Shown one piece after another: positions 35,728 to 54,294 of a stretch of 64,000 nucleotides of DNA; position 1 is the stretch's first letter; each line of letters begins with the position of its first letter. Position numbers and translations under genes: made by a program. The notes under the pieces are model-generated. The model ran no database searches and was not told the DNA's origin. It saw only the letters and a program-made list of their open reading frames with translations. The DNA comes from Acidimicrobiales bacterium (GTDB lineage Bacteria; Actinomycetota; Acidimicrobiia; Acidimicrobiales; Bog-793): NCBI GenBank assembly GCA_050015475.1, contig JBEKBI010000003.1, positions 32,109-96,108 on the forward strand, read 5' to 3'.

Positions 35728-36220
35728 CGCGCGGGCAAACTATCCAAGCCGAATGAACGCAGCGTGAGCCGTGATCGGCATCTCAGTGAAGTTCGTATGA
35801 ACGTTGAGTGACAAACAGCGCGCCGATGCGGCCTCACTCGCCAAGGCGTGCCAGCCGTCGTCGGCAGCCTCACGGACACAGGACGAGGTCCCTCGGGAAC
35901 CGGACGACGAGGCGCCTCGACCCAGCAGGCTCGTCGGCGCGGTCTGCGACTGCCGGCCCGCCACAGGCCGTGGATCGTGCGAAAACACCCATGGTTACTG
36001 AGAAACGCCGCCTCCACTCACGTTCCAACGATCTGCTCAGCTGAGATTCGTCGCCACATTTGTCACGACGGCGAGTCGTGCGCGGACCCGCCACCTTCTT
36101 CGGTCCGCTGCGCCGCGACCGTGTCGAGCTCGGAGCCGACCGTACCCATCCAAGCACGCTGCCCTCGAGTGAAGCTGGTGGGTCGTGTTAGCTCGAATTC
36201 ATCTACATGCAATCTTCCCG

Positions 36221-36248
36221 TTGCCTTCTCTACATCAGCCGGTAGGGT
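36221..36248 (+). promoter_or_regulatory. Candidate pst operon promoter (TTGCCT, 16 nt, TAGGGT)
   Basis: Read directly in an AT-richer patch about 65 nt upstream of pstB. Flanked by a direct repeat TCTACAT (36202-36208 and 36229-36235). Confidence 0.25.
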
Positions 36249-36311
36249 CCACTACCTAGACTTCTTGCTCGGATCCCCAAGTACTTACCGGGAAAAGAGG
36301 AGGACGCCGGC

Positions 36312-37154
36312 TTGTTGGCAATCGAAGAGATCGGGCCAGAGTCCCTCGTTTCAAGTCCACACTTGGCCACCGAAGTCATGGGTGCCCAACTCGACGCGAT
36401 CAACGTGTCGGCCTGGTTCGGCACCAACCGGGTTCTAAGCCGGGTGTCGCTTTCCATGCCGCCCGGAACTGTCACCGCTCTGATCGGCCCGTCCGGATGC
36501 GGCAAGTCGACCTTTCTGCGGATCCTCAACCGCATGCACGAGATGGTGCCCTCGGCCAAGCTGGCTGGCCAGGTCAAGCTCGGCGGTCAAGATATCTACG
36601 CCGTAGGCCAGCGCGTCACCGAGACCCGCAAGAAGATCGGGATGGTGTTCCAGAAGCCGAACCCGTTCCCCGCCATGTCAATCGCCGAGAATGTGATCGC
36701 CGGGTTGAAACTGGTCGGAGTCAAGCTCAGCCGATCCGAACGAGATGAGCTGATTGAGCGGTCGTTGACCCGCGCCGGGCTCTGGACCGAGGTCCGTGAT
36801 CGCTTGCGCGATCCAGGGGGCGCTCTTTCAGGCGGGCAGCAGCAGCGGCTTTGCATCGCCCGCGCGTTAGCAGTCGATCCCATGGTCCTGCTCATGGACG
36901 AGCCCTGCTCCGCGCTCGACCCGACGTCCACGAGACGTATCGAGGACACGATCCACGAAATCAAGGACGAGGTGACGGTGGTGATCGTCACCCACAACAT
37001 GCAGCAGGCCGCCCGCGTGTCAGAGCAGTGCGCCTTCTTCCTTGCCCAGCAGGGCACGCCTGGAGTCATCGTTGAGGCGGGACGGACGGAGAAGATCTTC
37101 ACCGCACCTGACGACCCTCGGACCGAGGACTACGTCAATGGCCGCTTCGGCTGA
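36312..37154 (+). CDS. pstB: Phosphate ABC transporter ATP-binding protein
   Basis: '[12 protein letters not shown]', '[14 protein letters not shown]', '[16 protein letters not shown]', '[12 protein letters not shown]', '[12 protein letters not shown]'. TTG start follows AAGAGGAGGA. Confidence 0.93.
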
Positions 37155-38151
37155 GCCCCCCAGCCGCCTCGATACCCTGGATCAGCCCATCAGTCCACAG
37201 GCGACCAACCCATGGGTCGATCGCCTGTTTCACCTGGTGGCGCGTGGGATAGCCACTGTTGTACTCGTCATCTTCGGGTCGATCGGGATCTTCCTCGCTT
37301 ACCAGTCGATACCGACATTCCGTCGCTACGGCCTGTCGTTCCTGACGCAGTCCCAGTGGAACCCGGAGCTGGACAAGGTGGGGATTTCGTCCACGCTCCT
37401 CGGCACCGTGGAGGTGGCGCTCGTCGCTCTCGTCGTGGCCTTCCCGATCGCGCTGGCCACGGCGCTGTTCATAAGCGAGTACGCCCCGCTGCGGATCAAG
37501 GGCTTTCTCGTGGCCCTGGTCGATCTAATGGCGGCCGTCCCGAGCGTGATCTACGGCGCGTGGGGCTTCTTCCTCCTCATGCCCCACGCCTCGCTCTCTT
37601 CCCGCTTCATCAGCCAGTACTTCAGCTGGATCCCGATCTTCAGGGTCGACACCAACCCGGCGGCCGCAGTCTGGGCCCAGTCGCGCTTTGTCAACTCGGC
37701 GTTCATAGCTGGGCTGTGCGTGTCGCTGATGGTGATACCCATCACCTGCTCGGTCATGCGAGGCGTCTTCGCGGAGGCTCCCCCGGGCGAGCGTGAGGCC
37801 GCATACGCCCTGGGCTCGACCAAGTGGGGGATGATCAGAGCCGTGGTGCTGCCCTTCGGGCGAGGCGGCATCATCGGCGGCACGATGTTGGGACTGGGCC
37901 GCGCGCTCGGAGAGACCATCGCCGTGCTTTTCATCATCTCCCTGACCTTCAACGTCAACTTCCACATCCTTCAGAACGGCACAGCCACCATCTCCGCTCT
38001 GATCGCCAACGACTTCGGAGAATCGACCAGCGCTCAGCTCGCGGCGCTCCTCACCGCCGGGCTTGTCCTTTTCGTCATGACACTCGGCGTCAACACGATC
38101 GCCGCCGTCTTCATCACCCGCAGCCGAAGCGGCGCGGCGACCGAGATCTAG
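37138..38151 (+). CDS. pstC: Phosphate ABC transporter permease
   Basis: 'EYAP.R.K..L....[15 protein letters not shown]' and '[40 protein letters not shown]'. ATG at 37138 overlaps the pstB end by 17 nt. Confidence 0.9.
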
Positions 38152-38160
38152 TCGTGTCTG

Positions 38161-39318
38161 ATGGCTACTGACGTCGTGCCTGCAACCCTCGACCCCACTG
38201 CGCTCGCGCAGTTCGAGCCTCCGGCCGTTGCCGGAGCGCCCGTACCCGTCCCCGACGAGGATGTGCCGACCCCGCTCCACCGCGTGGCCTTGGAGGACGT
38301 TTACGCGGTAGTCGGATCGTTGGTGGGATCCTTTGGACTCGTCTGGTTGGTGTTCTCCTATGTCCTTCCGCTGAGTGGCACGGTCGGCTTCGTGCTGTGT
38401 TGGGATGCCGCCTTCCTCGCCATGTACGCCGGTGTCACCGCCCTCAGCCATCCACGCCCAGTTGTGGTGAGCAGGGTAATGGCCGCGGTCATCGTCGGGC
38501 TCGCGGTGCTCGTGGGTTTCGTCCTCATGACTGTTGTGGTCTACGTAGTGGCCCACGGCTACCACGCCGTAGCGCATCTCAACTTCTTCACCCAGTCGGC
38601 CTCGGCCGGTTCGCTGACGGGGACATTCAAGCAAGGCGGGATCTTTAACGCCCTGGTCGGCTCGCTGATCCAGGTGGGCGCCGCGATAGCCATCGCCCTT
38701 CCCCTGGGGATCGGCACAGCGGTGTTCATGACGGAGACGCGCGGCTGGTTCGTCAAGCTGGTACGGACCGTCGTTGAGGCCATGACAGCCGTCCCCGACC
38801 TCCTCGCCGGCTTGTTCATCTACGTCGTGTTTGTCCTGCCGTTTCACGGCAACTACCCGTGGGGGCACAAGAACGGATTCGCGGTCTCCTTGGCCCTGGC
38901 CGTCGCTGGCACGCCGATCATCGCCCGCTCGGCGGAGGTGGCGCTTCGCGTGGTGCCTGGAGGCTTGCGGGAAGCCGGTCTCGCTTTAGGTGCGTCGCAC
39001 TGGCACACTGTCCGTCGGATCGTGCTGCCCACTGCCCGGCCAGGACTGGCGACCGCATTGATCCTGGCCGTCGCCCGCATGATCGGCGAGAGCGCGCCTC
39101 TTTTGATCGTGTCCGGCTTTACGACCTTCTTCAACGGAAATCCGTTCGACGCCCAGCCGATGATCTCGTTGCCTCTCTACGTCTACGAGACCCTTCGCAG
39201 TGGGCAGCCGGTCGAGATCGTCCGAGGGTTCGGCGCAGCGTTCGTACTGCTGTTCATCGTCTTCATACTGTTCGCCGCCACGAGAGTGCTGGCGCGTCAG
39301 AGGGTGAGCGCCCGATGA
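38161..39318 (+). CDS. pstA: Phosphate ABC transporter permease
   Basis: 'REAGLALGASHWHTVRRIVLPTARPGLATALILAVARMIGESAPLL'. Has a long N-terminal extension with an extra TM region. Confidence 0.88.
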   Translation: MATDVVPATLDPTALAQFEPPAVAGAPVPVPDEDVPTPLHRVALEDVYAVVGSLVGSFGLVWLVFSYVLPLSGTVGFVLCWDAAFLAMYAGVTALSHPRPVVVSRVMAAVIVGLAVLVGFVLMTVVVYVVAHGYHAVAHLNFFTQSASAGSLTGTFKQGGIFNALVGSLIQVGAAIAIALPLGIGTAVFMTETRGWFVKLVRTVVEAMTAVPDLLAGLFIYVVFVLPFHGNYPWGHKNGFAVSLALAVAGTPIIARSAEVALRVVPGGLREAGLALGASHWHTVRRIVLPTARPGLATALILAVARMIGESAPLLIVSGFTTFFNGNPFDAQPMISLPLYVYETLRSGQPVEIVRGFGAAFVLLFIVFILFAATRVLARQRVSAR

Positions 39319-39448
39319 GCTTCGCCACGCTTTGCGCCCGCTGGTGGAGACCGCGGGTATGTCCGCGTGCATCACGTGTCGACGGGCCCGTCACCGGAGG
39401 TGCGCCGACCGTCGGAGCGAACCACTCGAGCCGCAGAGGAGAATTGTC

Positions 39449-41200
39449 GTGAGAACGAGATCTCGGACGCGACGAGGCGGCGCCTGGGCGCGGATAAGCC
39501 GCGCCGGCGCGGCGGTCGCTGTTGCAAGCATCGTCGCTTTGATCGTGTCCCCGCCCGTGGGCGCTGAAAGCGGGTACGAGCAAATCGACGGGTCCGGCTC
39601 GAGCTGGGCCGCGCTGGCGGTGCAGCAGTGGGTCAGCGATGAGTCGAGCTCCATGCAGGTCGTCTATACACCCTCTGGTTCCGCACAGGGCAGGACCGAC
39701 TTCGCCAACGGCCAGAACGACTTTGCGGTCAGTGACATCGGCTACCAGGGGGAGAACAAGCAGACGGGCGTCAACGACTCCTCCAGCCGGCCGTACGCCT
39801 ACCTCCCGATAGTCGGCGGAGCCACGTCGTTTCCCTACAACATCGTCGTCGGAGGGCACCAGGTCGAGAACCTTCGCCTCTCGGGCCTGACGCTCGCCAA
39901 GATCTTCACCGACCAGATAACCAACTGGGACAATCCCGAGATCACCGCCGACAACAACGGCCACGCCCTTCCTTCCATCCCGATCATCCCGGTCATCCAC
40001 TCCGAGGGGGCCGGCACGACTTTCCAGTTCACCGACTATCTCAACACCGAGTACCCGCAACTGTGGCATCAGTTTTCGGGTTACACGTTTCCGGTCGAGT
40101 TCTGGCCCACAGGCCAGGGTTCCCAGGTCGCCGAGAACGGATCCGACGGGGTAATGGGGTTCATCGCCTCCGCCGCAGGTCAGGGATCGATCGGGTACGA
40201 CGAGTATGCCTACGCCATTGGCGCCAGTTTCCCCGTCGTGGCACTCGAGAACGCGGCTGGTTACTTCACCATGCCTGACGCCTATGACGCGGCTGTGTCA
40301 CTGACGCAGGCCCATATCAATTACGACAAGAATCCCGCTGACTGCTCCAGGCTGGGGTTCAGCACGTCACCCTGCTACCTGCTTGAGAAGCTGAACGACG
40401 TCTACACCTACACCGATCCCCGCACGTACCCGCTCTCGTCGTACTCGTACGAGATCATGCCCACGGCGCCGACGTGCTCCGGTCCGACCGCCAAGTGCGA
40501 CCCGACGATGAACACCGCCAAGCGCCAAACGCTCGCAGCTTTTGACGACTTCGCACTCTGCGCCGGGCAGGCGCAGATGGCGCCTATCGGCTACTCGCCC
40601 CTCCCGATCAACCTGGTGGAAGCGTCCTTCGCGCAGGTGACTCTGCTCCACACGGCCGACTCGGCCGTCGTCGTCTCCCAGCTCAACCCCGCTCACTGCG
40701 ACAACCCCACGTTCATAGCCGGCGAGCCCAGCGAGAACTACCTGGCGAAGATCGCCCCATACCCGCCGGCATGTGCCAAGGCGGGGCAAGGGCCGTGCCC
40801 CGGTCAGTACGCGCACAACGGAAACCCGATCGACGGCAAAGCAGCCGGAAACAGCGGCGGAACCGACTCAGGCGGCGGACACAACTCGGGTGGCGGGAAC
40901 AACTCGGGCAGCGGTAACAACTCGGGTGGCGGGAACAACTCGGGTGGCGGACACAACTCAAGCGGGGGAACCAAGGGCGGCGGCACAAAGGGCGGCGGCA
41001 CCAAGGGCGGCGGCACCACACCCCCGTCGACGGTGATTCCGCTGGCGGTGGCCACGGTCCTCACGGGGGACCACCCAGGTGGCCTTGGGTATATCGCGCT
41101 CGGCCTTGTCGTGACCGCCCTCCTCATCGTCGGGCTATTCGCCCCCTCCCTGAGGCGCTCCGCTCGCAAGCGACTGAAGCGACCGGGGCCGTCGACATGA
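39449..41200 (+). CDS. pstS: PstS-family phosphate-binding protein, atypical: signal peptide, enlarged PBP domain, Gly-rich repeat stalk, C-terminal TM anchor with basic tail
   Basis: GTG at 39449 follows GAGGAGAA. 'IDGSGSSWAALAV', 'YTPSGSAQGRTDFANGQNDFAVSD', 'LTLAKIFTDQITNWDNPEI', 'IHSEGAGTTFQFTDYL', 'GSIGYDEYAYA' are PstS hallmarks. No lipobox. C-terminus (GGGxNS)x5-(GGTKG)x3-...HPGGLGYIALGLVVTALLIVGLFAPSLRRSARKRLKR. Confidence 0.82.
   Translation: MRTRSRTRRGGAWARISRAGAAVAVASIVALIVSPPVGAESGYEQIDGSGSSWAALAVQQWVSDESSSMQVVYTPSGSAQGRTDFANGQNDFAVSDIGYQGENKQTGVNDSSSRPYAYLPIVGGATSFPYNIVVGGHQVENLRLSGLTLAKIFTDQITNWDNPEITADNNGHALPSIPIIPVIHSEGAGTTFQFTDYLNTEYPQLWHQFSGYTFPVEFWPTGQGSQVAENGSDGVMGFIASAAGQGSIGYDEYAYAIGASFPVVALENAAGYFTMPDAYDAAVSLTQAHINYDKNPADCSRLGFSTSPCYLLEKLNDVYTYTDPRTYPLSSYSYEIMPTAPTCSGPTAKCDPTMNTAKRQTLAAFDDFALCAGQAQMAPIGYSPLPINLVEASFAQVTLLHTADSAVVVSQLNPAHCDNPTFIAGEPSENYLAKIAPYPPACAKAGQGPCPGQYAHNGNPIDGKAAGNSGGTDSGGGHNSGGGNNSGSGNNSGGGNNSGGGHNSSGGTKGGGTKGGGTKGGGTTPPSTVIPLAVATVLTGDHPGGLGYIALGLVVTALLIVGLFAPSLRRSARKRLKRPGPST
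40871..41017 (+). repeat. Coding tandem repeats: 18-nt unit x5 (GGGHNS/GGGNNS) followed by 15-nt unit x3 (GGTKG)
   Basis: Read directly; lies inside the 3' part of the PstS-like gene. Confidence 0.85.
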
Positions 41201-43977
41201 GAGTTTCCATGCCGCGCCACCGCGTCGCACTATCCCGGATCGGGATGGCCTTGGCGGTGCTGCCCGTCCTCATGCTGACCGCCCTGCCGGCTCACGCTTC
41301 GGCCCCGAGCACAGCGTCATGCGGCGCCCGATCGGTCACGACCAACGGGACATCGTTCTCTGCTACGGAGACGCTTTGCAGGACGTTCTTCGACCAGGGG
41401 GTGGTCGACCGTCGGACGTTCACTGTGACGGTCTCCCAGACGACTAATCTGCGTAACGACCAGGTCATCACGGTTTCGTGGTCCGGCGCGCACCCGACAG
41501 GCGGCATCGTCTCGGCCGAGCAGTTCGCGGCCGCCGCCGAGCAGGAATACCCGGTCGTACTGATGGAGTGCCGAGGCGTCGACTCGCCGGACGTGCCGGC
41601 AGCAAGGCGCCTCTCTCAGGAGACATGCTGGACCGCCACGCCCGCAGAGCGGGTCGTCGCCACGCCGTCCCCTTACTCGATGTGGAGCTTGGACGGGGAC
41701 AATGCCGCCGACGGCGTATGCACACAGCGGTACTGCAACATGCCGATACCGATACCGTCCAACTGCGCCGGCGAGGTAGCACCTGGTCCCAACTACTGGC
41801 TCCCGTTCGACGCCGCTAACGGGACTGACTACGCCATCGGACCGGATGGCTGCGACGGCTCCCCGCCGGAGATGCTCGTTGGGGGCGAGGACCCGGACAT
41901 CATCCCCAGCGATACGACCTATGCCGAGACCGAGCTGAACGGGACCGGGTCGGCGAAGTTCACGATCATGACGTCCGAGACCAACGCCTCTTTGGGGTGC
42001 TCCCAGACCGTTCCCTGCTCGCTCGTAATCATCCCGATCGACGGGATCAACTGCAACGCGAACCCCCAAGTGAGCTCCCCCAACTACCAGTGCGAGTCTC
42101 TCGGAACCTTCCCGGCCGGATCCGTCAACACGGGGAGTAATCCGTACCCGCCTGCGCAGGCGGTCACCGGCGTCTACTGGTGGAGTGGCAGCAACTGGAA
42201 TCGCCGGATCTCCGTGCCACTCAGTTTCGCCACTCCCGCGAATGCATGCGCCAACAATGTGCAGGCTCCGCTTTTGTTCTACGGGTCTGAGGTGATGACC
42301 CTGCTCGCCGAGCAGTGGGACCCGGCTTTCTGCCTCAACTCCAAGCTGTTCAACGTCAACGTGGTCCAACTTCCCGAACCCGTCGCCAAGAACTCCCTGC
42401 AGCAGGGGTTCATCGAGGCTGCCATCCAAGGGGAGCCACCCCCGGTGCCGGCGGGGCAGAAATCGTTCTTCACCAAGCCCACCGTGCAGGCGCCTGTGGC
42501 GGTGAGCGGGTTCGCGATCGCCTATGTCATCGACAACGGGAATGGCTCCGCGTACACGCAACTCCGGCTCGACCCTCGCCTGTTGGCCAAGTTGATGACG
42601 GAGTCCTATTCCGGGACAACCGACGTGCAGGCCGACTGGCAGGTCACCGGCGAGGAGCTCGGATCAGCACCCGACGAGTGCCCGGCGAACTGCAACTCCG
42701 AGTACGCGGCGATGGCGAATAACCCGCAGAGCATCTTCGAGGATCCCGAGTTCCTCGCTCTCAATCCCGGGTTTCATGCCCCCAACGGCATACTGCGGGC
42801 GCCGGCCTCGACGTTGTTCAGCATTCTCTCCCAGTCGGACGTGATCTGGGCTCTCACCTCGTACATCAACGCCGATCCTGAGGCTCGAGCCTGGCTCAAC
42901 GGGAAGCCCGACCCATGGGGCATGGTGGTCAACCCGGCCTACAAGGGCATCAAATTGCCGGTCGACTCCTGGCCACTGCTCGACACGACGACCAATGGTC
43001 CGGAGTACACCGAGACCGGCAACCCGTTCTGCGTCGGAGCGCTCGGAAACGGCACTGCAAAGGTTCCCATTCGGCCGCTGATCGACAACCCCCAGGAGAA
43101 CCTGGGATACGTCGCCTACAACATGCAGTACTCGATCGCCGCGTCCCTTACCGCATGCAACGGCAACACCCTCACGCCCGAATACACGGAGCTTGGACCA
43201 GAGACGCTCGGCAACCGGTTCCTCCTCGGGCTGGTCTCACTGCCCGACGCGGACGAGTTCGACCTCGACACAGCAGCACTCCAGACCTACGCCAACCCGG
43301 AGCGTGAGACCAACGACGGGCCCCTATTCCCTGTGGGCCGTTCCTTCGTGTCCCCGACTCCGGCTTCGCTCGAGACGGCTGCGGCGTTGATGACGCCGGA
43401 CACCGCCGCGGGCACCTGGGTGCTTGCCTACAACGCTCTTCACAGCGACGCCAAGGCCAAAGGGGCTTACCCAGGCACGATGCTGCTTTCCGCCGACGTG
43501 CCTACGAAGGGTCTGCCTGCCAGCGACGCTGACGACTACGGCAAGTACCTGTCGTTTGCCGCCACAACCGGGCAAACACAGGGCTTCGCCGTCGGTCAGC
43601 TCCCGCACGGCTACGTGCCCATGACCTCGAGCGAGGCGGACTACACCAAGGCGGCCGCGGCCGACGTGGCAGCTCAGAACGGGAAGGTCCCGTCCTTGGC
43701 CGCTCAGCCTCCTTCCACGACCACCACCACTACCACCACCACGACCACCGTGGTCACGACCACCACATTGGCGCACGGGAGCTCCACCACCACCACCGTC
43801 GCTTCGGGGGGAACGACAACCACTACGACAACCCAGCCGGGGGATCTCGTCGGCGCGACTCTCGGTCTGGAGGCAGGGGTCGGTGGCCTCGCTCTGCCCC
43901 TGGCCCTGTTGGTGGCCCTTCTCGGAGGAGTGTGGACTGCCGGAATCATGCTGCGGCGGAGGCGGAGCCGGTCGTGA
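41197..43977 (+). CDS. 926-aa secreted, Cys-rich surface protein of unknown function (distal part possibly PBP/PstS-like), poly-Thr stalk, C-terminal TM anchor plus RRRRSRS
   Basis: ATG overlaps the pstS-like stop (ATGA). Signal peptide 'MALAVLPVLMLTALPAHASA'. Later segments ('LLFYGSEVMTLLAEQW', 'APVAVSGFAIAYVID...LRLDPRLLAKLMTESYSG', 'GAYPGTMLLSADVP') loosely resemble type-II PBP blocks. Tail ...TTTTTTTQPGDLVGATLGLEAGVGGLALPLALLVALLGGVWTAGIMLRRRRSRS. Confidence 0.75.
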   Translation: MRVSMPRHRVALSRIGMALAVLPVLMLTALPAHASAPSTASCGARSVTTNGTSFSATETLCRTFFDQGVVDRRTFTVTVSQTTNLRNDQVITVSWSGAHPTGGIVSAEQFAAAAEQEYPVVLMECRGVDSPDVPAARRLSQETCWTATPAERVVATPSPYSMWSLDGDNAADGVCTQRYCNMPIPIPSNCAGEVAPGPNYWLPFDAANGTDYAIGPDGCDGSPPEMLVGGEDPDIIPSDTTYAETELNGTGSAKFTIMTSETNASLGCSQTVPCSLVIIPIDGINCNANPQVSSPNYQCESLGTFPAGSVNTGSNPYPPAQAVTGVYWWSGSNWNRRISVPLSFATPANACANNVQAPLLFYGSEVMTLLAEQWDPAFCLNSKLFNVNVVQLPEPVAKNSLQQGFIEAAIQGEPPPVPAGQKSFFTKPTVQAPVAVSGFAIAYVIDNGNGSAYTQLRLDPRLLAKLMTESYSGTTDVQADWQVTGEELGSAPDECPANCNSEYAAMANNPQSIFEDPEFLALNPGFHAPNGILRAPASTLFSILSQSDVIWALTSYINADPEARAWLNGKPDPWGMVVNPAYKGIKLPVDSWPLLDTTTNGPEYTETGNPFCVGALGNGTAKVPIRPLIDNPQENLGYVAYNMQYSIAASLTACNGNTLTPEYTELGPETLGNRFLLGLVSLPDADEFDLDTAALQTYANPERETNDGPLFPVGRSFVSPTPASLETAAALMTPDTAAGTWVLAYNALHSDAKAKGAYPGTMLLSADVPTKGLPASDADDYGKYLSFAATTGQTQGFAVGQLPHGYVPMTSSEADYTKAAAADVAAQNGKVPSLAAQPPSTTTTTTTTTTTVVTTTTLAHGSSTTTTVASGGTTTTTTTQPGDLVGATLGLEAGVGGLALPLALLVALLGGVWTAGIMLRRRRSRS
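43717..43833 (+). repeat. Coding low-complexity poly-Thr tract (acc/acg runs)
   Basis: PPSTTTTTTTTTTTVVTTTTLAHGSSTTTTVASGGTTTTTTT, read from the sequence. Confidence 0.85.
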
Positions 43978-44936
43978 CAGTGATCGACGCCGACGCTTTC
44001 GACCTCGTCATCGACCGGTCCGATGGTGCTCGGTCCCCCACCCCCGAGACATCGGCCCCGGCTGCTCCGGCGAGCGTATCGAGCAGGCGGAACGCGCGGG
44101 CGATCGCTCGCGGTGTGGCAGTCGCGATACCGACCGTCCTCGCCGTGCTCGCGTTGTGGTTCCTGGCGTACGGGTTTGTCCTGAGCGGCGTCGAGCAACA
44201 TGTGTCCCAATCCCGCCTCTACGACGAGTTCCGTTTGGAGTTGGCGGCAGAAACGGCACCCCTGGCGGAGCCGGTGCAGGTCGGATCGCCGGTGGCCATC
44301 CTCAACGCCCCGTCGGCGGGGATCGACAACCTCATCGTGGTCGAAGGCACGACATCCCGACTTCTCATGTCCGGCCCCGGCCACCTGAGCGACACCCCGC
44401 TACCGGGGCAGGCTGGCACGTCGGAAATCCTCGGGCGCAGCGTCACATTCGGGGCCCCCTTCGGCCGCATCACTCAGATGTCCGTGGGCGATGTTGTCAC
44501 GGTGACCACAGGCCAGGGAGTCTTCCGTTACCGCGTCGAGGACATCCGCGAGCCGGGAAACCGGCTCCCTCCGCCGCTCCACGCCGACGGCTCCCGGCTC
44601 ACGCTGGTGACCTCGACGAGTGGAGGGTGGAGAAGCGGATGGGCTCCGACTCACACCGTGTATGTCGATGCCGTTCTCTCGGGAAAGGCCCAGCCGTTGC
44701 CCGCGGGGGTGCCGGCAACGGTTAGCCAAGCTTCGCTCCCGATGCACAGCGACCCGACTGCTGGTATCGCGCTCATCTTCTGGCTCGAGGGCCTTGTCCT
44801 TGCCTCTCTCGCCATCGGCTGGACGTGGGTTAGGTGGGGCCGGTTCGAGACATGGATTGTCGGAACGCCCGTGTTCATCGCGGTGCTGTGGGGGACGACC
44901 GAAGCCCTCATGCGGTTCCTGCCGAACCTGTTGTAG
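43974..44936 (+). CDS. Sortase-fold membrane protein (class E-like architecture) lacking the catalytic Cys and His: candidate pseudo-sortase or non-canonical enzyme
   Basis: GTG overlaps the upstream stop (GTGA) and follows GGAG. N-terminal TM helix, then 'NLIVVEGTTSRLLMSGPGHLSDTPLPGQAGTSEILGRSVTFGAPFGRITQMSVGDVVTVTTGQGVFRYRV...RLTLVTSTSGGW'. This matches sortase blocks, but AGHR is LGRS and TLxTC is TLVTS. The 320-aa protein has zero Cys. Two C-terminal TM helices. Confidence 0.6.
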   Translation: MTVIDADAFDLVIDRSDGARSPTPETSAPAAPASVSSRRNARAIARGVAVAIPTVLAVLALWFLAYGFVLSGVEQHVSQSRLYDEFRLELAAETAPLAEPVQVGSPVAILNAPSAGIDNLIVVEGTTSRLLMSGPGHLSDTPLPGQAGTSEILGRSVTFGAPFGRITQMSVGDVVTVTTGQGVFRYRVEDIREPGNRLPPPLHADGSRLTLVTSTSGGWRSGWAPTHTVYVDAVLSGKAQPLPAGVPATVSQASLPMHSDPTAGIALIFWLEGLVLASLAIGWTWVRWGRFETWIVGTPVFIAVLWGTTEALMRFLPNLL

Positions 44937-44943
44937 GCGACCG

Positions 44944-44972
44944 GCCTGGGCGTCACCGTCTCGAGCCCAGGC
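44944..44972. terminator. Hairpin between convergent operons (8-bp perfect stem gcctgggc/gcccaggc, 13-nt loop)
   Basis: Read directly. Begins 8 nt after the sortase-like stop. No clear U-tract. Confidence 0.35.
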
Positions 44973-45140
44973 ACGGAGTTGGTCGCCTCATCACACTCCT
45001 GGACTCAGCCCGGTCAACCGGGAATCACCGCCTCCTGTGCGCCTCGCCGAGGGAGCGGATCCGGCGTCACCCGCCGGCTGCCCGTTCGACATCGGGCAAC
45101 AGATCTCGAAGATAAGCGAGTGCTGGGGCGCCGCGTCTCG

Positions 45141-45440: not shown

Positions 45441-45501
45441 CCGGAACTGGCGTCGACTCGAGCCGGGGCCAATCGAATCTCGCCGGCTGAACGCCCGGGC
45501 G

Positions 45502-46335
45502 TCAGGCCACTCGCCGCCGGCGTCGGAAGAAGAACAGCGCGGCCCCCCCGGCAAGGAGCAGGGCCGCGATCACTCCTCCGGCGATCGCACCCGCGGAAGC
45601 GCCACCTCCCGAACCCGACGTGGCTCCTTGGGCAGTCTTCGAGGCGCCCCCACCAGAAGGCTGCGTGGAACCCGTGGAGGCAGATCCGCCCTTGCGCCCG
45701 GGAGCCCGGCCAACCTTTACTGGCGGCTTGGGTACGGCGGTCTCCGACTTGGGCAGGACGAGCGATTCCTCGGACACGGCAGTCCCATCGGTGCAGGAGG
45801 ATCCACCCCCCTGAACCAGGGTCCAAGTGGTGCCAGTGACCCTGATGACGGCCGTCGGGTAGCTGGTTGTCCAGGCCTGCTCGTCGGGGCTGGAGAAAAC
45901 CATTCGCAACTGGTACAGGCCATCCCAGTACGGCGGCGTCGAGTGATCCGGCCAGATCAAGGGGGCGTCAGCGTAGGTGGCTTGCGCCATCGGGTGGTCC
46001 CGGTTCGAGAACGTTGCGTCGTCGGTCAGCTGATAGCCCGTCCAGTCTCCTGGATCCAAGTACTGAAGCGGCTGGAACAGGTCGAGCGTGGCCCTGGTGT
46101 AACCCGCAGGAGCAGGAGCCGAGGACACCGCTCTCCACACGAATGGAATGGTCAGCAGGCTGCCTGAAGTGATCGGCTGTTCGTGTGCGTTGCACAATGT
46201 CAGCGAACCAACTCGATTGGGATCCGTGAAGGGGACCTTGGAGCCGCTGGCGAAAGCGGCCGACGGTACGACAAGCGCGCCGACGGTAACCACCAAAACA
46301 AGTGCCCCCCTTGTCAGCCAACTCCGGGTGCTCAT
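45502..46335 (-). CDS. Secreted protein of unknown function with Gly/Ser stalk and C-terminal TM anchor plus RRRRR
   Basis: Start at MSTRSWLTRGALVLVVTVGALVVPSAAFA (signal peptide), 7 nt after the DUF916 stop. Tail ...GSGGGASAGAIAGGVIAALLLAGGAALFFFRRRRRVA. Confidence 0.7.
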   Translation of the reverse strand: MSTRSWLTRGALVLVVTVGALVVPSAAFASGSKVPFTDPNRVGSLTLCNAHEQPITSGSLLTIPFVWRAVSSAPAPAGYTRATLDLFQPLQYLDPGDWTGYQLTDDATFSNRDHPMAQATYADAPLIWPDHSTPPYWDGLYQLRMVFSSPDEQAWTTSYPTAVIRVTGTTWTLVQGGGSSCTDGTAVSEESLVLPKSETAVPKPPVKVGRAPGRKGGSASTGSTQPSGGGASKTAQGATSGSGGGASAGAIAGGVIAALLLAGGAALFFFRRRRRVA

Positions 46336-46342: not shown

Positions 46343-47563
46343 TTATTCTCTTTCTCGCTCAGCCGGCGCCACTGGCGTCGGGTCCTTGGCAGCAGACTCG
46401 CGTCCGACGACCTGACGCTTCGCAACACGGCCCGAGGCCGGCGCATCGCCGGATTGGGATTCCTGCTTGCCGGTGTCGTCTCCCTCCCCTGGCTTGTCCG
46501 AATCCGCTGCCGATCCACGACCCCGCCGGCGGCGGCGGCGATAGAACCAACCGAGCGCGATCAGGATCGCTGCAACGATGATTGCTATCAGTGTCCACGG
46601 GATGGCCCAGAACGACCGCGAGGCCTGGAAAGGACCCGACGACGACGCGACCGAACCGGCTATGTAAAGAGGCTGAATGGACACGTGGGCCGTCTCGCGA
46701 ATCTCGGGGAATATGCCCGTCACCTCGACGGCCTCTTTGACCGAGTAGCCCGGCAGCAAGAGCTGAAGCCTCGGGACGCCAGTGGCGGTGGACCGGCTCC
46801 CGAACAACCCTGAGACGTAGACCGTCTGAAGCCCGCCTAGGGCGACGTTGCCGGTGTTGGAAACGGTGTAGGTGACCCTTGCCTGGCCGGTGCCGATCGG
46901 GTCGAGCGTCCCTTGATAGTGGACCGCGAGCCCGGTGATGGTGAGAGACGGGCGCAACCGCCCGCTTACACGTAGGAAGATTCGGGTGCCGACGGTCTGC
47001 AACAGTCGCACCCGCTCGCCGCTTTTCGATATCACGGACGACACGAGGGTGGCGGTGATCACGCCGATATGGTCGCCGGGCGTCGCGTTTGCGGGCACCT
47101 CGATCAGGAAGGGGATGATGAGGACGGAGCGGGGCCGGAGCGTCAGCTGCAAGTCCGACTTGGGTAACAAGATCCAGGTGCCGAGGTCGTGAGAGCGCTC
47201 GTCGATGGGCCGCGCCGCGAAGCCGCCTTGCGGGGTGTTGATGCCGTCAGTTCCCCGTATCAGAAAGGTCGCTGTCTGGTCGGAGTAATTGAGGATCGCG
47301 ACGTGATCCTCGATCCGCCCACCGGGCGTCGACCCGAACAGGTAAATGCCCCGGTTGTCGGGCTTGGTGGCGGAAGCCGTCTGCGTGCCGAAGGTGACGA
47401 CGTTCCTCCGCTCCGACGGCGCCTTTTGCCCGTACGCCGGAGCAAGAGAAAGCAACAAAGCGAGGGCGCAGCTCACGACGGCTGCAATAGACAAATAGAG
47501 CCGGGTGGATCGTCGGATTGTCGTGTCGCGAGGCTGCATTTGGCGTGTCCGAATATCATCCAC
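46343..47563 (-). CDS. DUF916-type cell-surface protein (CscA-like, WxL-locus associated), C-terminal TM plus poly-Arg and an acidic/basic tail
   Basis: Signal peptide, then 'YLFGSTPGGRIEDHVAILNYSDQTATFLIRGTDGINTPQGGF', 'WILLPKSDLQLTLRPRSVLIIPFLIEVPANATPGDHIGVI', 'RIFLRVSG' and a second Ig-like half. TM 'WTLIAIIVAAILIALGWFYRRRRRRGRG'. This pattern matches DUF916/DUF3324 proteins as I recall them. Confidence 0.7.
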   Translation of the reverse strand: MDDIRTRQMQPRDTTIRRSTRLYLSIAAVVSCALALLLSLAPAYGQKAPSERRNVVTFGTQTASATKPDNRGIYLFGSTPGGRIEDHVAILNYSDQTATFLIRGTDGINTPQGGFAARPIDERSHDLGTWILLPKSDLQLTLRPRSVLIIPFLIEVPANATPGDHIGVITATLVSSVISKSGERVRLLQTVGTRIFLRVSGRLRPSLTITGLAVHYQGTLDPIGTGQARVTYTVSNTGNVALGGLQTVYVSGLFGSRSTATGVPRLQLLLPGYSVKEAVEVTGIFPEIRETAHVSIQPLYIAGSVASSSGPFQASRSFWAIPWTLIAIIVAAILIALGWFYRRRRRRGRGSAADSDKPGEGDDTGKQESQSGDAPASGRVAKRQVVGRESAAKDPTPVAPAERERE

Positions 47564-47758: not shown

Positions 47759-49630
47759 CTAGGAGACGGAGAAGGTGATGGTGCCGCTGTAGGTGCCGGC
47801 CGGGGTGCTGGTCGCTGCGTACAGCGTCAGCGTCCCGTACATCAGAGCCGTGCCATCAGAGGCGCTGCTTACGGCCCACGTCTGTGCTGTGGAGCCGAGT
47901 CCAGGACCGGTGCCAGGACCGTCCACCGGGCTCGGGTTCTTCGCAACGATGTTGTTGAAGGCCACGTCACCGGCGTAGGCGCTGGTTCCGGTGGAGTTGT
48001 ACTCGCCGCCGGTCAAACCAAGGCCCGAAGCCGGGATCGAGTTAGCGCCGCTGGTAAGCGCCGTCGCCGAAACCGAGAGCGTCCAAGCGTAGGCGGGAGC
48101 CAGAGTGCTGGTCACTGTGATGTCCTGATCTCCGGCCTTCGGGAACTGCGCCGAGGACTGGAAATAGGTGCCATCACTGCTCAGTGTCATCGCCGGAAGC
48201 ACGAACGGGTTGGTGCTCGTGTACGGCGTGCTGATCGTGATTGTGCCTGGGTTTATGGTCACCTGGAGGTTCTGGGTGTCCGAGCAGACCGAACCGGCGT
48301 TGGCAGGCGGGCAAACAGCCGGAGCCGCAACCGTGACCGAGACCGCGGACGACGTCGAGGACGCGTACGAGTTGCTGGTCGGGCTGAACACGGCCGTAAT
48401 GCTGTTGCCGCCCTGGGGCAGGGAGCTCGTGTCGCAAGTCGCCGTGCCGCTGTATGGCGAGGTCGTGCTCACCGTGGTCACCTGAGCTGTGCAGCCGGCG
48501 ATCGCGGTGGTGCCGTTCAGAAACTCCACGTTCCCAGCCAAGCCCGTGCTGACGCTGTCGCTCTCGGTAACCGTCGCCGTCAAGTCCACCGGCGCGCCGT
48601 AAGCGGCGCTGGCGGTGTTGGTCGACAGCGCGGTCGAGGTTGCAACCTGCGGCGGGGTGACCGAAACCGGCACCGAGGACGAGCTCGAGCCGCCCACGAA
48701 GCTTGCATTCCCCGACCCCAACACAGTCGTGGTCGAGGCAGTCTCGTCACCGGGTGCCGGGACGAAGGTCGCCGTGTAGCTGTACGAGCCGGCGGTCGGC
48801 GCGTACGTGTAGGTGGCGACTCCGGCGCTCGGGGTCACGTCGGCCAGGAAGGTGGTGCCGTTGTAGAACTGCACCGTTCCAGCTGCACTGCTCGACACCG
48901 TAGCCGTCAGGGTGACGGAGTTCGGTGTGACCACGTGGGCTGCCGACGCCGTGAGGCTCGTGGTCGTGGCGCTGACGAACGGGTACAGGACCGCCCATCC
49001 ATCCGCTGGCACTGTGGTGCCATCCAGCGTGATTGCCGACGACGTCGTGTTGTAGCCGATGTCGCTCTCCCAGTAGGTGCCGGTGCTGTTGCCAGCGCCG
49101 CCCGCACCCGAGTCGGTCAGGCGAACCTGGATGGTGTTGACGTAGCCGGTGGTGGTGTCGCTGGGATTAACCGAAATGAAGCTGGTGATGTTGGCTGCTG
49201 ACGTGGCCGCGACCGGGTACGAAGCCGCGTCGGCCACGATGTCAGCGGGCGTGCCAGTAGGCAGGCTGGAGGCGGGATTGAAGGTCGTCGTGCCGCTCTC
49301 GGCCGTCCCTGTCCAGCCCGCCGGCAGGACGCCGTGCACTGGGAGGTAGAAGTTGACGATGGCCTTGTTGGCTCCCGAGTCGGGGGCGGTGCTGGCCACG
49401 ACGTAGGCGAACGGACTGCTCAGGTTGGTCCCGCTGGTAACCTGCACTCCGTTGGAGTTGTAGAAGGTGAGGTTGCCGTAGGGGGCTGCAGCGTTTGTGT
49501 CGGGTTCCCAGGGGGGAGCCGTAGTCGCCGCAAAGGCCGTACTCGCAATAGCGAGCAGCCCTCCTCCGGCGATGGCTGCGGTGAGCAACCCTGCCACCGC
49601 CACCTTGAGACTTCGCTTCGTTGGCTTCAC
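47759..49630 (-). CDS. Secreted surface protein: novel N-terminal domain, Ig-like repeats, C-terminal WxL-type domain
   Basis: GTG start follows GAAAGGAAAG. Signal peptide ...IASTAFA. Ig-like modules ('VTLTATVSSSAAGTVQFYNGTTFLADV...YSYTATFVP', 'VDLTATVTE...GNVEFLNGTTAIAGC'). C-terminal about 190 aa ('LQVTINPGTITISTP...ITVTSTLAPAYAWTLSVSATAL...GTLTLYAATSTPAGTYSGTITFSVS') looks like a WxL domain. Confidence 0.72.
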   Translation of the reverse strand: MKPTKRSLKVAVAGLLTAAIAGGGLLAIASTAFAATTAPPWEPDTNAAAPYGNLTFYNSNGVQVTSGTNLSSPFAYVVASTAPDSGANKAIVNFYLPVHGVLPAGWTGTAESGTTTFNPASSLPTGTPADIVADAASYPVAATSAANITSFISVNPSDTTTGYVNTIQVRLTDSGAGGAGNSTGTYWESDIGYNTTSSAITLDGTTVPADGWAVLYPFVSATTTSLTASAAHVVTPNSVTLTATVSSSAAGTVQFYNGTTFLADVTPSAGVATYTYAPTAGSYSYTATFVPAPGDETASTTTVLGSGNASFVGGSSSSSVPVSVTPPQVATSTALSTNTASAAYGAPVDLTATVTESDSVSTGLAGNVEFLNGTTAIAGCTAQVTTVSTTSPYSGTATCDTSSLPQGGNSITAVFSPTSNSYASSTSSAVSVTVAAPAVCPPANAGSVCSDTQNLQVTINPGTITISTPYTSTNPFVLPAMTLSSDGTYFQSSAQFPKAGDQDITVTSTLAPAYAWTLSVSATALTSGANSIPASGLGLTGGEYNSTGTSAYAGDVAFNNIVAKNPSPVDGPGTGPGLGSTAQTWAVSSASDGTALMYGTLTLYAATSTPAGTYSGTITFSVS

Positions 49631-49766: not shown

Positions 49767-51500
49767 CTAGCAGGAGCCAGCGGTGTCGGTACCGGTGAGT
49801 TCGGTGCAGATCTCCGGGATGGTCGGGGTGATTCCGGCGTCCTCGAGGAGCGTCTGACCTTCGGCGGAGTCGATGTACGGGGCTCCGTCAGGCCCGTAGG
49901 TCGCAGCGTTTGCTCCGGAACCCACGGTGATGCAGTTGTTCGCCCCGGCTGGGCACGGGTCGTAGAACAGGGTGTTGAGCCAGTTCTCCGTCGTACCGGG
50001 CTGCCAGGCAGTGGTCGAGGCGATGTCGCTGTTGCGGAACAGGAGGAACAGGGGTCGGGTCGGGTCGAACAGACCACTCGTGTAGCCACTGGCGGAGTAG
50101 ACGCCGAGGCCAACCGGTCCCGTTGTCCCGGTAACCGATGTACCCGTGCTGGCGGTGATCGTCACGACGTTCGGCGACACGGCCTTGGGGGTCCCGAGGC
50201 CACCGTTCGCGCTGCCACTGGTCTCACATGCCGCGCTCCCAACCAGGTAGGCACAGCTGGGGTCGAGGAAGTAACCGCCACTAGGAAGGCCACCGGATGC
50301 GCCGGTGTTGCTGACGCCCCGGTAGAGGTCGAGGCGGCCCTGCGACATGGGCTCGATGGCGTCCGCAGGAGTACCTGCGACGTCAAAGATGGCCGTCGGG
50401 TCATTCTCTTCCGAGACCAGGGCACAAGCCGGCACGTAGCTGGTGTTGCTCGACAGGCCGATCTGCTGGAGGAAGTACTTACGAGTGCCCGAGCCAACCT
50501 GCGGGATGAGCGGGATGATCTTGTCGCCGCTCGCCGAGGGGTTGACAAGGCCGACGTTGTCCGACGTGCTGGTGGAGAAGCTCGAGGGAAGAGCGTCGCT
50601 CAGGGTGATGGTTCCTGTCCCAGCGCTTGAGACGGTCTCAGGTGAGCCGTTCTCTCCGTCGACCACAGCGCCGTTGACCTCAACTGCCCAGCCATCGTTG
50701 GCCGAGGTGGGTTGCTGCGGGTCGCTGCTGGGGAACGTGACGGCTTTCGAGCTGGCGGTGAGGCTGGCACCCTCCAGGTAGACCCCAGTGATCTCCGGGT
50801 CGTTCCAGGTGATGCAACCCGATGCCGGGGCTGTGTAGATGTAGTTCAGCTGCAACGCCGTGAGCGGCACGGCGTTCGTGCTGACACCGGAAGTGATCAT
50901 CGGCAGCGTGTCAGTGGCGATCTGGAGCTGGTCGATCGTCGGTATTGATGACGACGGGTTGCTCCCGGTCTCCGAGGAGGAGGACCGCGCGAAGTTGATG
51001 ACCTCGCTGCTCGCGGAGTTGTGGCCGGCGGTCACGTCCTGGACCAGGGCGTTGAATCCGGCGCCAGAGCCGTTGGGCCGTAGCACGGGCTGAAGACCGG
51101 CCCGCAGCACCACCGTCGGGTTGAGCACGCAGGGAGCACCGCTGTTGGGCGACGTCTGGTTGCCTGTTCCAGAGCCGCTCCCGGTGCCGGGCGTGCAGCT
51201 CGACTGGCCGGTTTGGCCACCGTCGACGCCGTAAGCGAGGCGAGCGTTGGCGTCGGCCGTCGCGTCGATGTCGACCACCTTGTACTTGTTGCCGAGCTGG
51301 TTGTAGCCGGTGTCGCCGTAGGCATTGCCGTCCGCCAGGAAGTCAATCCCGTACTGGATGGTGTCAGATCCGACGCCAACCACGTCACCTTTGTTGGGGG
51401 CGTAATCCGCGTATGCCGAAGGCACCACGAGCGCAAGTGGCAGCACTGCGGCCACCACCGTCGCCGCAGCTAAGCCAAGCTTCAGTGTGCGGTGTCTCAA
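49767..51500 (-). CDS. Secreted PstS/PBP_like_2-fold substrate-binding-like protein with large insertions (third PstS-fold protein of the island)
   Basis: TTG at 51500 follows GAAGGAG (ORF extends to 51545). Signal peptide LKLGLAAATVVAAVLPLALVVPSAYA. 'VVGVGSDTIQ', 'LRPNGSGAGFNAL', 'INFARSS', 'LTALQLNYIYT...ITWNDPEI', 'IPQVGSGTRKYF' follow the PstS-family block order. No lipobox or TM anchor. Confidence 0.6.
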   Translation of the reverse strand: MRHRTLKLGLAAATVVAAVLPLALVVPSAYADYAPNKGDVVGVGSDTIQYGIDFLADGNAYGDTGYNQLGNKYKVVDIDATADANARLAYGVDGGQTGQSSCTPGTGSGSGTGNQTSPNSGAPCVLNPTVVLRAGLQPVLRPNGSGAGFNALVQDVTAGHNSASSEVINFARSSSSETGSNPSSSIPTIDQLQIATDTLPMITSGVSTNAVPLTALQLNYIYTAPASGCITWNDPEITGVYLEGASLTASSKAVTFPSSDPQQPTSANDGWAVEVNGAVVDGENGSPETVSSAGTGTITLSDALPSSFSTSTSDNVGLVNPSASGDKIIPLIPQVGSGTRKYFLQQIGLSSNTSYVPACALVSEENDPTAIFDVAGTPADAIEPMSQGRLDLYRGVSNTGASGGLPSGGYFLDPSCAYLVGSAACETSGSANGGLGTPKAVSPNVVTITASTGTSVTGTTGPVGLGVYSASGYTSGLFDPTRPLFLLFRNSDIASTTAWQPGTTENWLNTLFYDPCPAGANNCITVGSGANAATYGPDGAPYIDSAEGQTLLEDAGITPTIPEICTELTGTDTAGSC

Positions 51501-52372
51501 TTTGAACTCCTTCAATTGATCGTCAAGGATCGCACGCCTTCGCAAAATGGGTGCCTTTTAGGAATAACATGCGAAGATGTTTTTCCAACCTCCACGAGGT
51601 GAACAGGCCATGAATTTTGCGTGATTCCTTTACATATTGAGGAGAATGTCCTGGTCATCTCCTGAGGACCGCGGCTTGTCCGGATGCCTGCCCGGATGGC
51701 CGGATCCTGACCATTCACGGCTCCACGACCACGCGGCGTGGGCAAGCCGAGACAAGCCTCCGTCTCCAGCCTGACGAAGGCTGCCATCAAGCCGAAAACG
51801 GGGATCTCCACCCGTCCCCGACCCCTCCGTCAGCCCACAGAGGCTTGACCTGAACGACAAGCACGCCGTCGCTGGGCCGCCAAAGCCGCTAATCGCGACG
51901 ACGACACCCCAACAAGAGGACCGGCTGACCCAACCGGGCGCAAAGGGTCGCCGGCGACACGACGCGGGAGTTTGGGGACCTGTTGAGAGACGAACCCGTC
52001 TTCGCCCACCACAAGTCCGTGCGCCACTTCTACCGTTTTGGCGGGCGAGGTCTCGCCTCGGCACTAGGGCGCGGGAGCCCATCCACACAACCCACAGCCG
52101 GCGTCGACTGTAGCCAAGCTGGCCTGCAGGTCTGGCACGAGACGGACGGCTCGTTCAGCCTCTGCGCGGGTGAGTCTGGACTCGAAGCCAGCAAGTCGTC
52201 CGGAATCTCGAGGATTCCGCCAACCATGGAAGCCCCAACTTCTCGACCAAAGCAGGCCGCGCCGGTCCGCGTTGCACCGTTCACCGCCTCGACCCGAGCA
52301 GCAGCTCGTTTAGCACCCTCGGGCGAGGCGGTGGGTTATGCGGCCTCGCGGTCGCCGAGGCGACACGGACCG

Positions 52373-54169: not shown

Positions 54170-54294
54170 GCGGCTTCCTTCCCGTTGAATTCTTTGCGAT
54201 CCGAGCGAGGATTCTAGGAAGCCGACTTGACCGTCCGATGTAGAGCAGGCAACGGGAAGATTCCAAGCAGGTGAATTCGATCTATCACGATCGA

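Follow-up and report, generated by a model that had tools for sequence, protein, structure and literature searches.

A conserved gene cluster of Actinomycetota joins a Pst-type importer to large surface proteins and a sortase-fold protein predicted to be non-catalytic

Results

A Pst-type importer and its surface proteins form one conserved unit

We analysed a 64,000-nt stretch of DNA from an Acidimicrobiales bacterium (GenBank assembly GCA_050015475.1, contig JBEKBI010000003.1, positions 32,109 to 96,108 of the forward strand), hereafter called the window. Between positions 36312 and 44936 of the window, the genes of an ABC importer of the Pst family (pstB, pstC and pstA) are followed by those of a membrane-tethered PstS-like binding protein (PBPL), a giant surface protein (P926) and a Cys-less sortase-fold membrane protein (SrtL). 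The order of these genes is conserved beyond chance, and the cluster is one conserved unit found across the Actinomycetota. While the anatomy of the cluster is near certain, its function has to be read from it. The explanation we favour, with a probability of about 0.5, is that the cluster encodes a paralogous, surface-tethered Pst-type uptake system, in which a pseudo-sortase would serve as scaffold and a relay through the wall would feed the importer.

A listing of open reading frames with their translations placed the core genes head to tail on the + strand, in the order pstB, pstC, pstA, PBPL, P926 and SrtL. The first one encodes a PstB-like ABC ATPase of 280 aa (36312..37154; PF00005). 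Its TTG start codon at 36312 is found just behind AAGAGGAGG, the last base of its stop codon is 37154, and its score is slightly under the TIGR00972 cut-off (334.5 versus 343.2 bits), yet TIGR00972 is by far its top-scoring model. Both permeases lie above the NCBIfam equivalog cut-offs: PstC (337 aa, 37138..38151), with six hydrophobic segments, scored 241.4 with TIGR02138 (cut-off 196.45), and PstA (385 aa, 38161..39318) scored 197.4 with TIGR00974 (cut-off 193.45). PBPL (583 aa, 39449..41200) matched PF12849 with 105 bits (E 8e-30). P926 (926 aa, 41197..43977) is without a Pfam or NCBIfam match and was assigned through an AlphaFold2 model and its Foldseek matches to PstS, and SrtL (320 aa, 43974..44936) matched PF04203 with 45.2 bits (cut-off 26.6).

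Reading of the junctions showed that the ATG of pstC at 37138 is located inside the 3′ end of pstB, whose stop codon occupies 37152-37154, so that both genes overlap by 17 nt. A gap of 9 nt separates the pstC stop (38151) from the pstA ATG (38161). Further downstream, the stop codon of PBPL and the ATG of P926 share the sequence ATGA (41197-41200), and the stop codon of P926 and the GTG of SrtL share GTGA (43974-43977). The six reading frames and the three overlaps are exactly those described in an earlier, sequence-only reading of this DNA, which had proposed that the six genes constitute one translationally linked unit. A single conserved unit they are, but the proposal needs two amendments: the pstA/PBPL junction is uncoupled in the window, because 130 nt separate the pstA stop (39318) from the PBPL start, and the unit exceeds six genes. 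The most plausible start of PBPL is the GTG at 39449, located behind GAGGAG, which gives a protein of 583 aa with a typical signal peptide, and the start of SrtL is backed by a gene call on a JGI contig, the 320-aa product of which is 100% identical. A scan of the cluster for promoter and terminator consensus sequences gave nothing above shuffled sequences, such a scan being uninformative in an actinobacterium with 65% GC. Aside from the upstream element described below, no small conserved genes were found in the gaps at 35728-36311, 44937-45501 and 51546-52372.

A locus scan with one genome per species yielded 348 matching stretches, of which the best 80 were examined. These 80 are all from Actinomycetota metagenome-assembled genomes (MAGs) of soil and peat, and cover Acidimicrobiia, Frankiales/Jatrophihabitans, Mycobacteriales, Streptosporangiaceae, Nocardioidaceae and Nanopelagicales. 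In addition, the window proteins were mapped by tblastn onto as many as 81 loci, taken from Actinomycetota genomes that each represent one species, with each arrangement counted only where the flanking sequence sufficed. SrtL was found directly 3′ of P926 in 75 of 75 loci, PBPL 5′ of P926 in 72 of 73, and pstC together with pstA upstream in 65 of 65. The pstB gene, whose cluster orthologs are 69-93% identical to the window copy, lay upstream in 56 of 64 loci and downstream of a second gene module in 5 of 64. A start codon that permits the 4-nt overlap was present at the PBPL/P926 junction in 63 of 76 loci and at the P926/SrtL junction in 65 of 77. In one independent assembly (locus L001), the called genes overlap as in the window (8295-10004, 10001-12730 and 12727-13671), and the 17-nt overlap between pstB and pstC also recurs in gene calls of independent assemblies. 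P926 homologs of about 900 aa numbered at least 839 in a word-indexed search, and a profile search through 1.84 billion cluster representatives placed 848 of them in the P926 family at E<=1e-30, almost all without a name. The block thus recurs in hundreds of soil actinobacteria.

Two cultured isolates, Nocardioides sp. Root1257 and Marmoricola sp. OAE513, carry a variant in which a single strand reads pstC-pstA-PBPL-P926-SrtL-PBP2-213aa-Big_3_5-pstB. Because pstB stands at the far end, beyond the surface-protein genes, the latter very probably belong to the transporter unit. The P926 gene of Root1257 has the locus tag ASC77_09015, and its clusters lie at 612-635 kb of LMDV01000008.1; the tag for OAE513 is ABIE44_002663. 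A rearrangement peculiar to one strain, which the sequence-only reading had named as an alternative, is ruled out by the order kept over up to 81 loci in the synteny search. In some genomes the cluster is present twice: Nocardioides sp. Root1257 has a tandem pair (L084, 18814-22748), and two copies (L006 and L034) are found on one contig, PLDN01000091.1, of an Acidimicrobiaceae MAG from palsa.

PBPL resembles PstS with a remodelled ligand pocket

PBPL comprises a signal peptide, a PBP_like_2 domain, a Cys-rich extension of ~100 aa, a stalk rich in Gly, Asn and Ser, a transmembrane helix (residues 546-564) and a basic tail, and is without a lipobox. It aligned with solved PstS proteins of the PDB at E 5e-23, in agreement with the initial view of this 583-aa protein as a long PstS, and it scored under the PstS equivalog cut-off (TIGR00975, 160 versus 205). 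The positions that bind the ligand in PstS were mapped through the alignment of PBPL with PstS from the PDB and an alignment of 75 orthologs. The window protein has His in place of Arg135, Glu for Asp137, Trp for Phe11 and Ala for Ser139, and Ser38, Asp56, Gly140 and Thr141 are retained; the full phosphate-ligating set (Thr10, Phe11, Ser38, Asp56, Arg135, Ser139, Gly140 and Thr141) is not present in PBPL. Across the family, the position of Thr10 is occupied by Ser or Thr, that of Phe11 by Trp (71/75), that of Ser38 mostly by Ser, that of Asp56 by Asp (50/75), that of Gly140 by Gly (74/75) and that of Thr141 by Ser, Ala or Thr. Arg135 corresponds to His in 54 and Gln in 16 of the 75 proteins and to Arg in none, and Asp137 to Glu in 73. 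Asp56 is the residue by which PstS selects protonated phosphate over sulfate. Absence of the phosphate-ligating residues had been named beforehand as a result that would speak against the proposed surface capture apparatus, and the outcome is mixed: Arg135 is lost in all 75 orthologs, and the other ligand positions are mostly kept. The PBPL of Marmoricola sp. OAE513 (L085, 8375-10001) is exceptional in having Arg-Ala-Asp at the positions of Arg135 and Asp137; its gene is apparently split or frameshifted, with two overlapping tblastn pieces and a called gene of 379 aa.

Taken together, the sequence features indicate that PBPL is the cognate binding protein of the importer, a diverged PstS whose flexible stalk ends in a membrane-tethering helix at the C-terminus, in place of a lipid anchor. 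As a solute-binding protein it appears to be competent for docking, but remodelled.

A canonical pst operon, the other result named beforehand as adverse, was found in one carrier genome. At locus L071, a pstS-C-A-B set adjoins the cluster; the PstB proteins of set and cluster share 55% identity, and the PstS of the set is a lipoprotein with the lipobox LTGCSS and the motifs GASFP, SAGSGTG, FAGSD and HRSDGSGTT. Since L071 has the canonical genes as well, the cluster is a paralogous system and not the sole Pst of the cell. Within the 64-kb window, no other pst genes (canonical pstSCAB) and no phoU were found.

The altered pocket brings up the possibility, which we hold to be real but minor, that the same architecture serves a substrate other than orthophosphate, such as a different oxyanion of tetrahedral shape, a phosphorylated molecule or a phosphonate. 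Arsenate, phosphite, pyrophosphate/polyphosphate, phosphomonoesters and wall teichoic-acid fragments would be candidates, with the specificity set by His/Gln135, Glu137 and Trp11 of PBPL. The replacement of Arg135 in 75/75 orthologs, of Asp137 by Glu in 73/75 and of Phe11 by Trp in 71/75 fits this proposal, as do the score of PBPL under the PstS cut-off and the coexistence in L071 of a PstSCAB with an intact pocket, which would free the paralog to specialise. Yet PstC and PstA still exceed the phosphate equivalog cut-offs, the Asp56 position remains Asp in 50/75 orthologs, Marmoricola sp. OAE513 retains Arg-Ala-Asp, and no enzyme of organophosphate catabolism is linked to the cluster.

P926 combines a PstS-like fold with an unmatched N-terminal domain

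P926 consists of a signal peptide, a disulfide-rich β-domain (residues ~46-350), a PstS-fold domain (~355-840), a Thr-rich stalk (846-897) and a transmembrane helix (894-912) that is followed by the tail RRRRSRS. The AlphaFold2 model, built on an alignment of 74 sequences, reached a predicted local distance difference test score (pLDDT) of 85.9 and a predicted template-modelling score of 0.83. When it was compared with the PDB by Foldseek, the top matches were only PstS and DING proteins, with a probability of 1.0, a target-normalised TM-score of 0.69-0.75 and 12-14% identity over ~470-490 aligned columns. Because all the top matches are of this kind, the region ~355-840 was assigned as a PstS fold with insertions, and it is in this region, through predicted structure only, that the sequence-only description of P926 as binding-protein-like finds support. 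By sequence, the glycine-rich anion loops of PstS cannot be recognised in P926, except that the invariant residues Gly363-Ser364 would sit at the position of the first of these loops. The N-terminal ~300 residues, which contain many invariant cysteines, gave a pLDDT of 91.7 when modelled alone and no significant match in the PDB, the best one being a neocarzinostatin-like β-sandwich (E 0.2). P926 is thus predicted to be a new disulfide-rich β-domain fused to a highly diverged PstS fold that is recognised by structure only. Even in isolates, the name given to this protein by NCBI is 'hypothetical protein'.

The unit includes a WxL-type module with a further PstS-like protein

A second set of genes accompanies the core. 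Elsewhere it is on the same strand, either directly after SrtL or before pstB, whereas in the window it runs on the other strand (45502-54334). Of the 47 loci of at least 18 kb, 45 contained two or more of the four gene types of this module.

In the window, all the module genes are on the − strand. The one closest to SrtL, g338 (45502..46335, start probably at the ATG at 46335), encodes a small surface protein with a C-terminal transmembrane anchor and is syntenic in 51 loci. Its neighbour g406 (46343..47563) encodes a protein resembling WxL-interacting proteins (WxLIP), also with a C-terminal transmembrane anchor. Among its orthologs, 25 of 33 matched the WxLIP peptidoglycan-binding domain (WxLIP_PGBD, PF06030; best E 6.9e-11); the window g406 gave no PF06030 match at E<=0.1, is 32-79% identical to the matching orthologs and has the transmembrane helix. 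Next comes g623 (47759..49630), which encodes a secreted protein with Big_3_5 Ig-like domains (PF16640, E 8e-17) and a divergent WxL-like C-terminal domain with the conserved end GTYxGTITF[ST]V; 5 of its 31 orthologs matched the WxL family PF13731 (best E 2.3e-5) and the window protein did not. PBP592 (49767..51545) is a secreted protein without a transmembrane anchor and the third PstS-family-like protein of the cluster. The window copy had no Pfam match and no PDB match by sequence, and its family status is based on the orthologs, which carry PF12849, and on their conserved loops VGVGSDT, RPNGSGAG and PQxGSG. Finally, g653 (52373..54169) is a paralog of g623, with Big_3_5 and repeated Ig-like domains and 59-60% identity to g623 over the N-terminal ~320 aa; in L004, L007 and L009 it lies directly upstream of pstB. 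The products of g338, g623 and g653 share an N-terminal domain of ~150 residues (PWEPDxN...FY...G..ITGG) that has no Pfam match.

WxLIP proteins are built of a peptidoglycan-binding domain, a second domain and a transmembrane helix (PMC10599100), and WxL proteins are described as coming almost entirely from Lactobacillales and Bacillales (PMC10599100, PMC1534035). On the basis of the g406 and g623 ortholog matches and the transmembrane helix of g406, the module agrees with the architecture of WxL loci of Firmicutes (PMC10599100, PMC1534035). The unit extends past the six core genes, and the WxL-type module and the third PstS-like protein belong to it.

The abundance of surface domains could also mean that the cluster is mainly an adhesive or wall-organising complex, in which the PstS folds would be structural or adhesive and the Pst-like ABC part would be a sensor or energiser. 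The WxL module of Firmicutes is a platform for surface attachment and host binding (PMC10599100), the PstS fold of P926 is without recognisable anion motifs, the Ig-like domains are many, and genes for GGDEF-EAL proteins, related to cyclic di-GMP, are located upstream in the window. We nevertheless regard this account as unlikely. A full type-I importer set, composed of two permeases, an ATPase and a docking-competent solute-binding protein, is kept at 50-90% identity, which makes an account without transport hard to sustain, and the GGDEF-EAL neighbours are not conserved at other loci.

It is more improbable still that an ordinary second phosphate transporter merely lies beside unrelated surface-protein genes and that the overlaps reflect incidental operon packing. 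Operons of high-GC actinobacteria often show 4-nt overlaps, but here adjacency and order persist in 65-75 of 65-75 informative loci, from Acidimicrobiia to Nocardioidaceae, at 40-50% protein identity. Furthermore, pstB of Nocardioidaceae lies beyond the surface-protein genes yet within the same strand block, and P926 and SrtL were seen solely in this context among the loci examined.

SrtL has a sortase fold without the catalytic residues

SrtL is a polytopic membrane protein that contains an N-terminal transmembrane helix, an extracellular sortase-fold domain and C-terminal hydrophobic segments, and the C-terminal end of the family, RWGxWQTW...LWG...LLPNL[LIV]-COOH, is highly conserved. The sortase fold assigned to this gene at the outset was confirmed by the PF04203 score and by matches to sortases of the PDB at E 1e-11. 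Class E was the best sortase class (NF033747), with 63.6 bits for a cut-off of 160. At the active site, the window SrtL reads LTLVTS where solved sortases show (L/M)T(L/I)VTC, and the position of the class E catalytic Arg is Thr in the window and variable (V, A, T, L, P and others) in orthologs. The Cys position is occupied in 79 orthologs by Ser (44), Ala (29), Thr (5) or Gly (1), and never by Cys. The 120 nearest homologs in a collection of 5.8 billion proteins have Ser (109), Ala (8) or another residue (3) at this position, and 83 of them have no Cys in the whole protein. The His of the GPGH motif is kept in 75/79 orthologs and 116/120 homologs. Sorting motifs of the form L[PA]xT[GAS] were found in 0 of the 12 cluster proteins and in no more than 2 ortholog C-termini per family, and no conserved motif precedes the transmembrane helices of PBPL and P926.

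The loss of both catalytic Cys and Arg indicates that SrtL is, as judged from its sequence, not an anchoring transpeptidase. The sequence-only reading had suggested an anchoring-type factor, and as an enzyme this proved wrong: Cys is absent from the nucleophile position of the 79 orthologs and 120 homologs, Arg is lost, and neither LPxTG nor LAxTG signals are present. Active sortase anchoring was accordingly rejected on the active-site counts and the missing sorting motifs. Although the fold and the conserved His are retained, Ser occupies the Cys position in 44/79 orthologs with Thr or Ser always at −1, and PBPL and P926 end like sorting signals in a hydrophobic helix and a basic tail, a SrtL that anchors both proteins covalently with a Ser/Thr nucleophile and a non-LPxTG signal is very unlikely to the point of being negligible, because the nucleophile position is Ala or Gly in 30/79 orthologs (the non-nucleophilic Ala alone accounts for over a third of the GTDB orthologs and is also present in cultured Nocardioides sp. 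Root1257), because the family has lost the catalytic Arg, and because no conserved or LPxTG/LAxTG motif precedes the helices.

Public databases name this Cys-less family 'sortase A' (JGI) and 'class E sortase' or 'sortase' (NCBI), names that the lost catalytic residues contradict. The tail of SrtL (44922-44936 in the window), which ends ...LLPNL[LIV]-COOH in ~110 of 120 homologs, is predicted to lie outside the membrane, beside the sortase-fold domain, and could be a built-in pseudo-substrate.

A repeated non-coding element and neighbouring genes

A conserved non-coding element, a putative promoter/operator or 5′ leader, is located upstream of pstB (36170..36300, + strand), and it is also found 5′ of pstB in the close relatives L004, L007 and L009. 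A second copy, with ~80% identity over ~125 nt, lies upstream of g653 (54166..54312, − strand). This repetition points to joint regulation of the two gene sets, which are convergent. A CCUUCCC stretch of the element could pair with the GGGAAGGGAGG Shine-Dalgarno region. The element had no Rfam match in the window, and RNAalifold on five copies gave a positive (penalising) covariation term and hence no covariation support.

Divergent from pstB, an OmpR-family response regulator with an N-terminal extension of ~65 residues is encoded at 34711-35727 (− strand), with no adjacent histidine kinase. Two GGDEF-EAL proteins are encoded just upstream (33278-34714 and 24133-26994, both + strand). The regulator and the GGDEF-EAL neighbours are not conserved at other loci. 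Beyond the second module, the − strand at 55877-58774 encodes a predicted membrane protein of 965 aa without a Pfam match, which has an N-terminal CxxC...CxxC motif resembling a zinc ribbon, several transmembrane segments and a large region at the C-terminus.

Discussion

The surface-tethered Pst-type uptake system that we favour would work as follows. Positioned at several depths of the envelope, the PstS-fold proteins would bind an oxyanion resembling phosphate, or else a phosphorylated compound, and pass it inward to PBPL and then to PstCA, with a logic like that of the Isd haem relay of Firmicutes. SrtL would neither cut nor link its partners; it would serve in the membrane as scaffold or chaperone, keeping the C-terminal anchors of both PBPL and P926 next to the transporter, or alternatively as a peptidoglycan-binding tether at the same place. 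The WxL-type module would fix the outer components to the wall in a non-covalent manner. Such a system would operate alongside canonical PstSCAB and not replace it, and its ligand would be phosphate-like, with specificity or pH dependence possibly altered through His/Gln135. A more specific form of this proposal, which we put forward tentatively, is a dedicated three-tier phosphate (oxyanion) relay across the Gram-positive wall of soil actinobacteria, assembled by a non-catalytic, sortase-derived scaffold that would recognise the C-terminal anchors and leave them uncut. Its tiers would be the secreted, WxL-associated PstS-fold protein, the giant one on its Thr-rich stalk and the membrane-tethered one on its Gly-rich stalk. 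The surface capture apparatus envisaged in the sequence-only reading remains the best hypothesis. The unit is conserved and its large proteins are binding-protein-like; specificity for phosphate is a possibility.

Several observations weigh against the uptake system. With Arg135 gone in 75/75 representatives and Asp137 turned into Glu, the ligand of PBPL may differ from orthophosphate. Comparison of P926 with a PstS fragment by hhalign gave a weak local match only, in which the GSG/SGT anion loops were not recognisable, and the PstS-fold domain of P926 may therefore bind nothing. No phosphatase or nuclease was consistently linked to the cluster across the inspected loci, and neither a Pho box nor phoU was identified in the window. 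Concerning the outer components, the WxLIP/WxL assignment is made at the level of the family, because g406 and g623 of the window are below Pfam significance, and WxLIP is absent from the compact cluster version of Nocardioidaceae. The Thr/Ser conserved immediately before the lost Cys (position −1) leaves an unconventional nucleophile in SrtL conceivable. Lastly, only architecture and synteny underlie the proposed roles of relay and scaffold, which are hypotheses.

Gram-positive phosphate uptake is usually pictured as a lipoprotein PstS feeding PstCAB. In comparison with the PstSCAB systems of E. coli, M. tuberculosis (PstS1-3) and Streptomyces, the cluster is alike in the equivalog matches of PstC and PstA, in the near match of PstB, and in the PstS fold and most ligand positions of PBPL. 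It differs in its gene order, which is B-C-A-S (or C-A-S...B) instead of S-C-A-B, in a binding protein that stands on a stalk with a C-terminal transmembrane helix instead of a lipobox, in the change of Arg135 to His/Gln, in the lack of a linked phoU, and in having two further PstS-fold proteins and surface proteins as obligatory neighbours.

As far as locus composition allows the analogy, the closest match in logic would be the Isd locus of Staphylococcus and Bacillus (isdA/B/C, isdDEF, srtB). There, an importer, its binding protein, surface proteins of the same fold at different wall depths and a dedicated sortase are encoded at one locus (PMC7815599, PMC10147376). Both loci are unrelated in sequence, however. 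The repeated fold is NEAT in Isd and PstS in the cluster; Isd proteins are anchored through LPxTG/NPQTN signals, whereas the cluster proteins would rely on transmembrane helices and non-covalent WxL-type binding, and the sortase-family member of the cluster appears to be catalytically dead. With class E sortases (Streptomyces SrtE1/SrtE2; PDB 5cuw and 5go5/5go6), SrtL shares the fold, the N-terminal transmembrane anchor and the conserved His, but it scores far below the cut-off, is without the catalytic Cys and Arg, has no LAxTG substrates in the cluster, and bears extra C-terminal membrane segments that end in LPNL[LIV]. Regarding the WxL/Csc loci of Lactobacillales and Bacillales, the g406 orthologs are alike in the WxLIP peptidoglycan-binding domain and C-terminal transmembrane helix, and the g623 orthologs in the Ig-like domains and C-terminal WxL-like domain. 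In contrast to those loci, the cluster belongs to Actinomycetota, its domains are very divergent, it has no LPxTG partner, and it is joined to a Pst-type importer.

The importer itself is of a known kind. What is new is its obligatory pseudo-sortase partner, a giant PstS-fold protein with an unmatched N-terminal domain, and a WxL-type module in Actinomycetota; a search of one literature library found no paper that links a sortase with pstS/pstC in Actinobacteria or that describes this cluster or Cys-less sortases. With SrtL, a family of sortase-fold proteins that are catalytically dead would be clearly defined for the first time, and the N-terminal part of P926 would be a new extracellular domain of ~300 residues without a structural relative in the PDB. 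WxL-type wall complexes would also extend beyond Firmicutes. If the relay is true, SrtL would be the first functional pseudo-sortase, and the cluster would extend a principle of nutrient relay so far known only for haem. Since carriers are in culture (Nocardioides sp. Root1257 and Marmoricola sp. OAE513), these questions are directly testable. A second conserved system with surface-displayed PstS folds would alter the models of phosphorus acquisition for actinobacteria of phosphorus-poor peat and soil.

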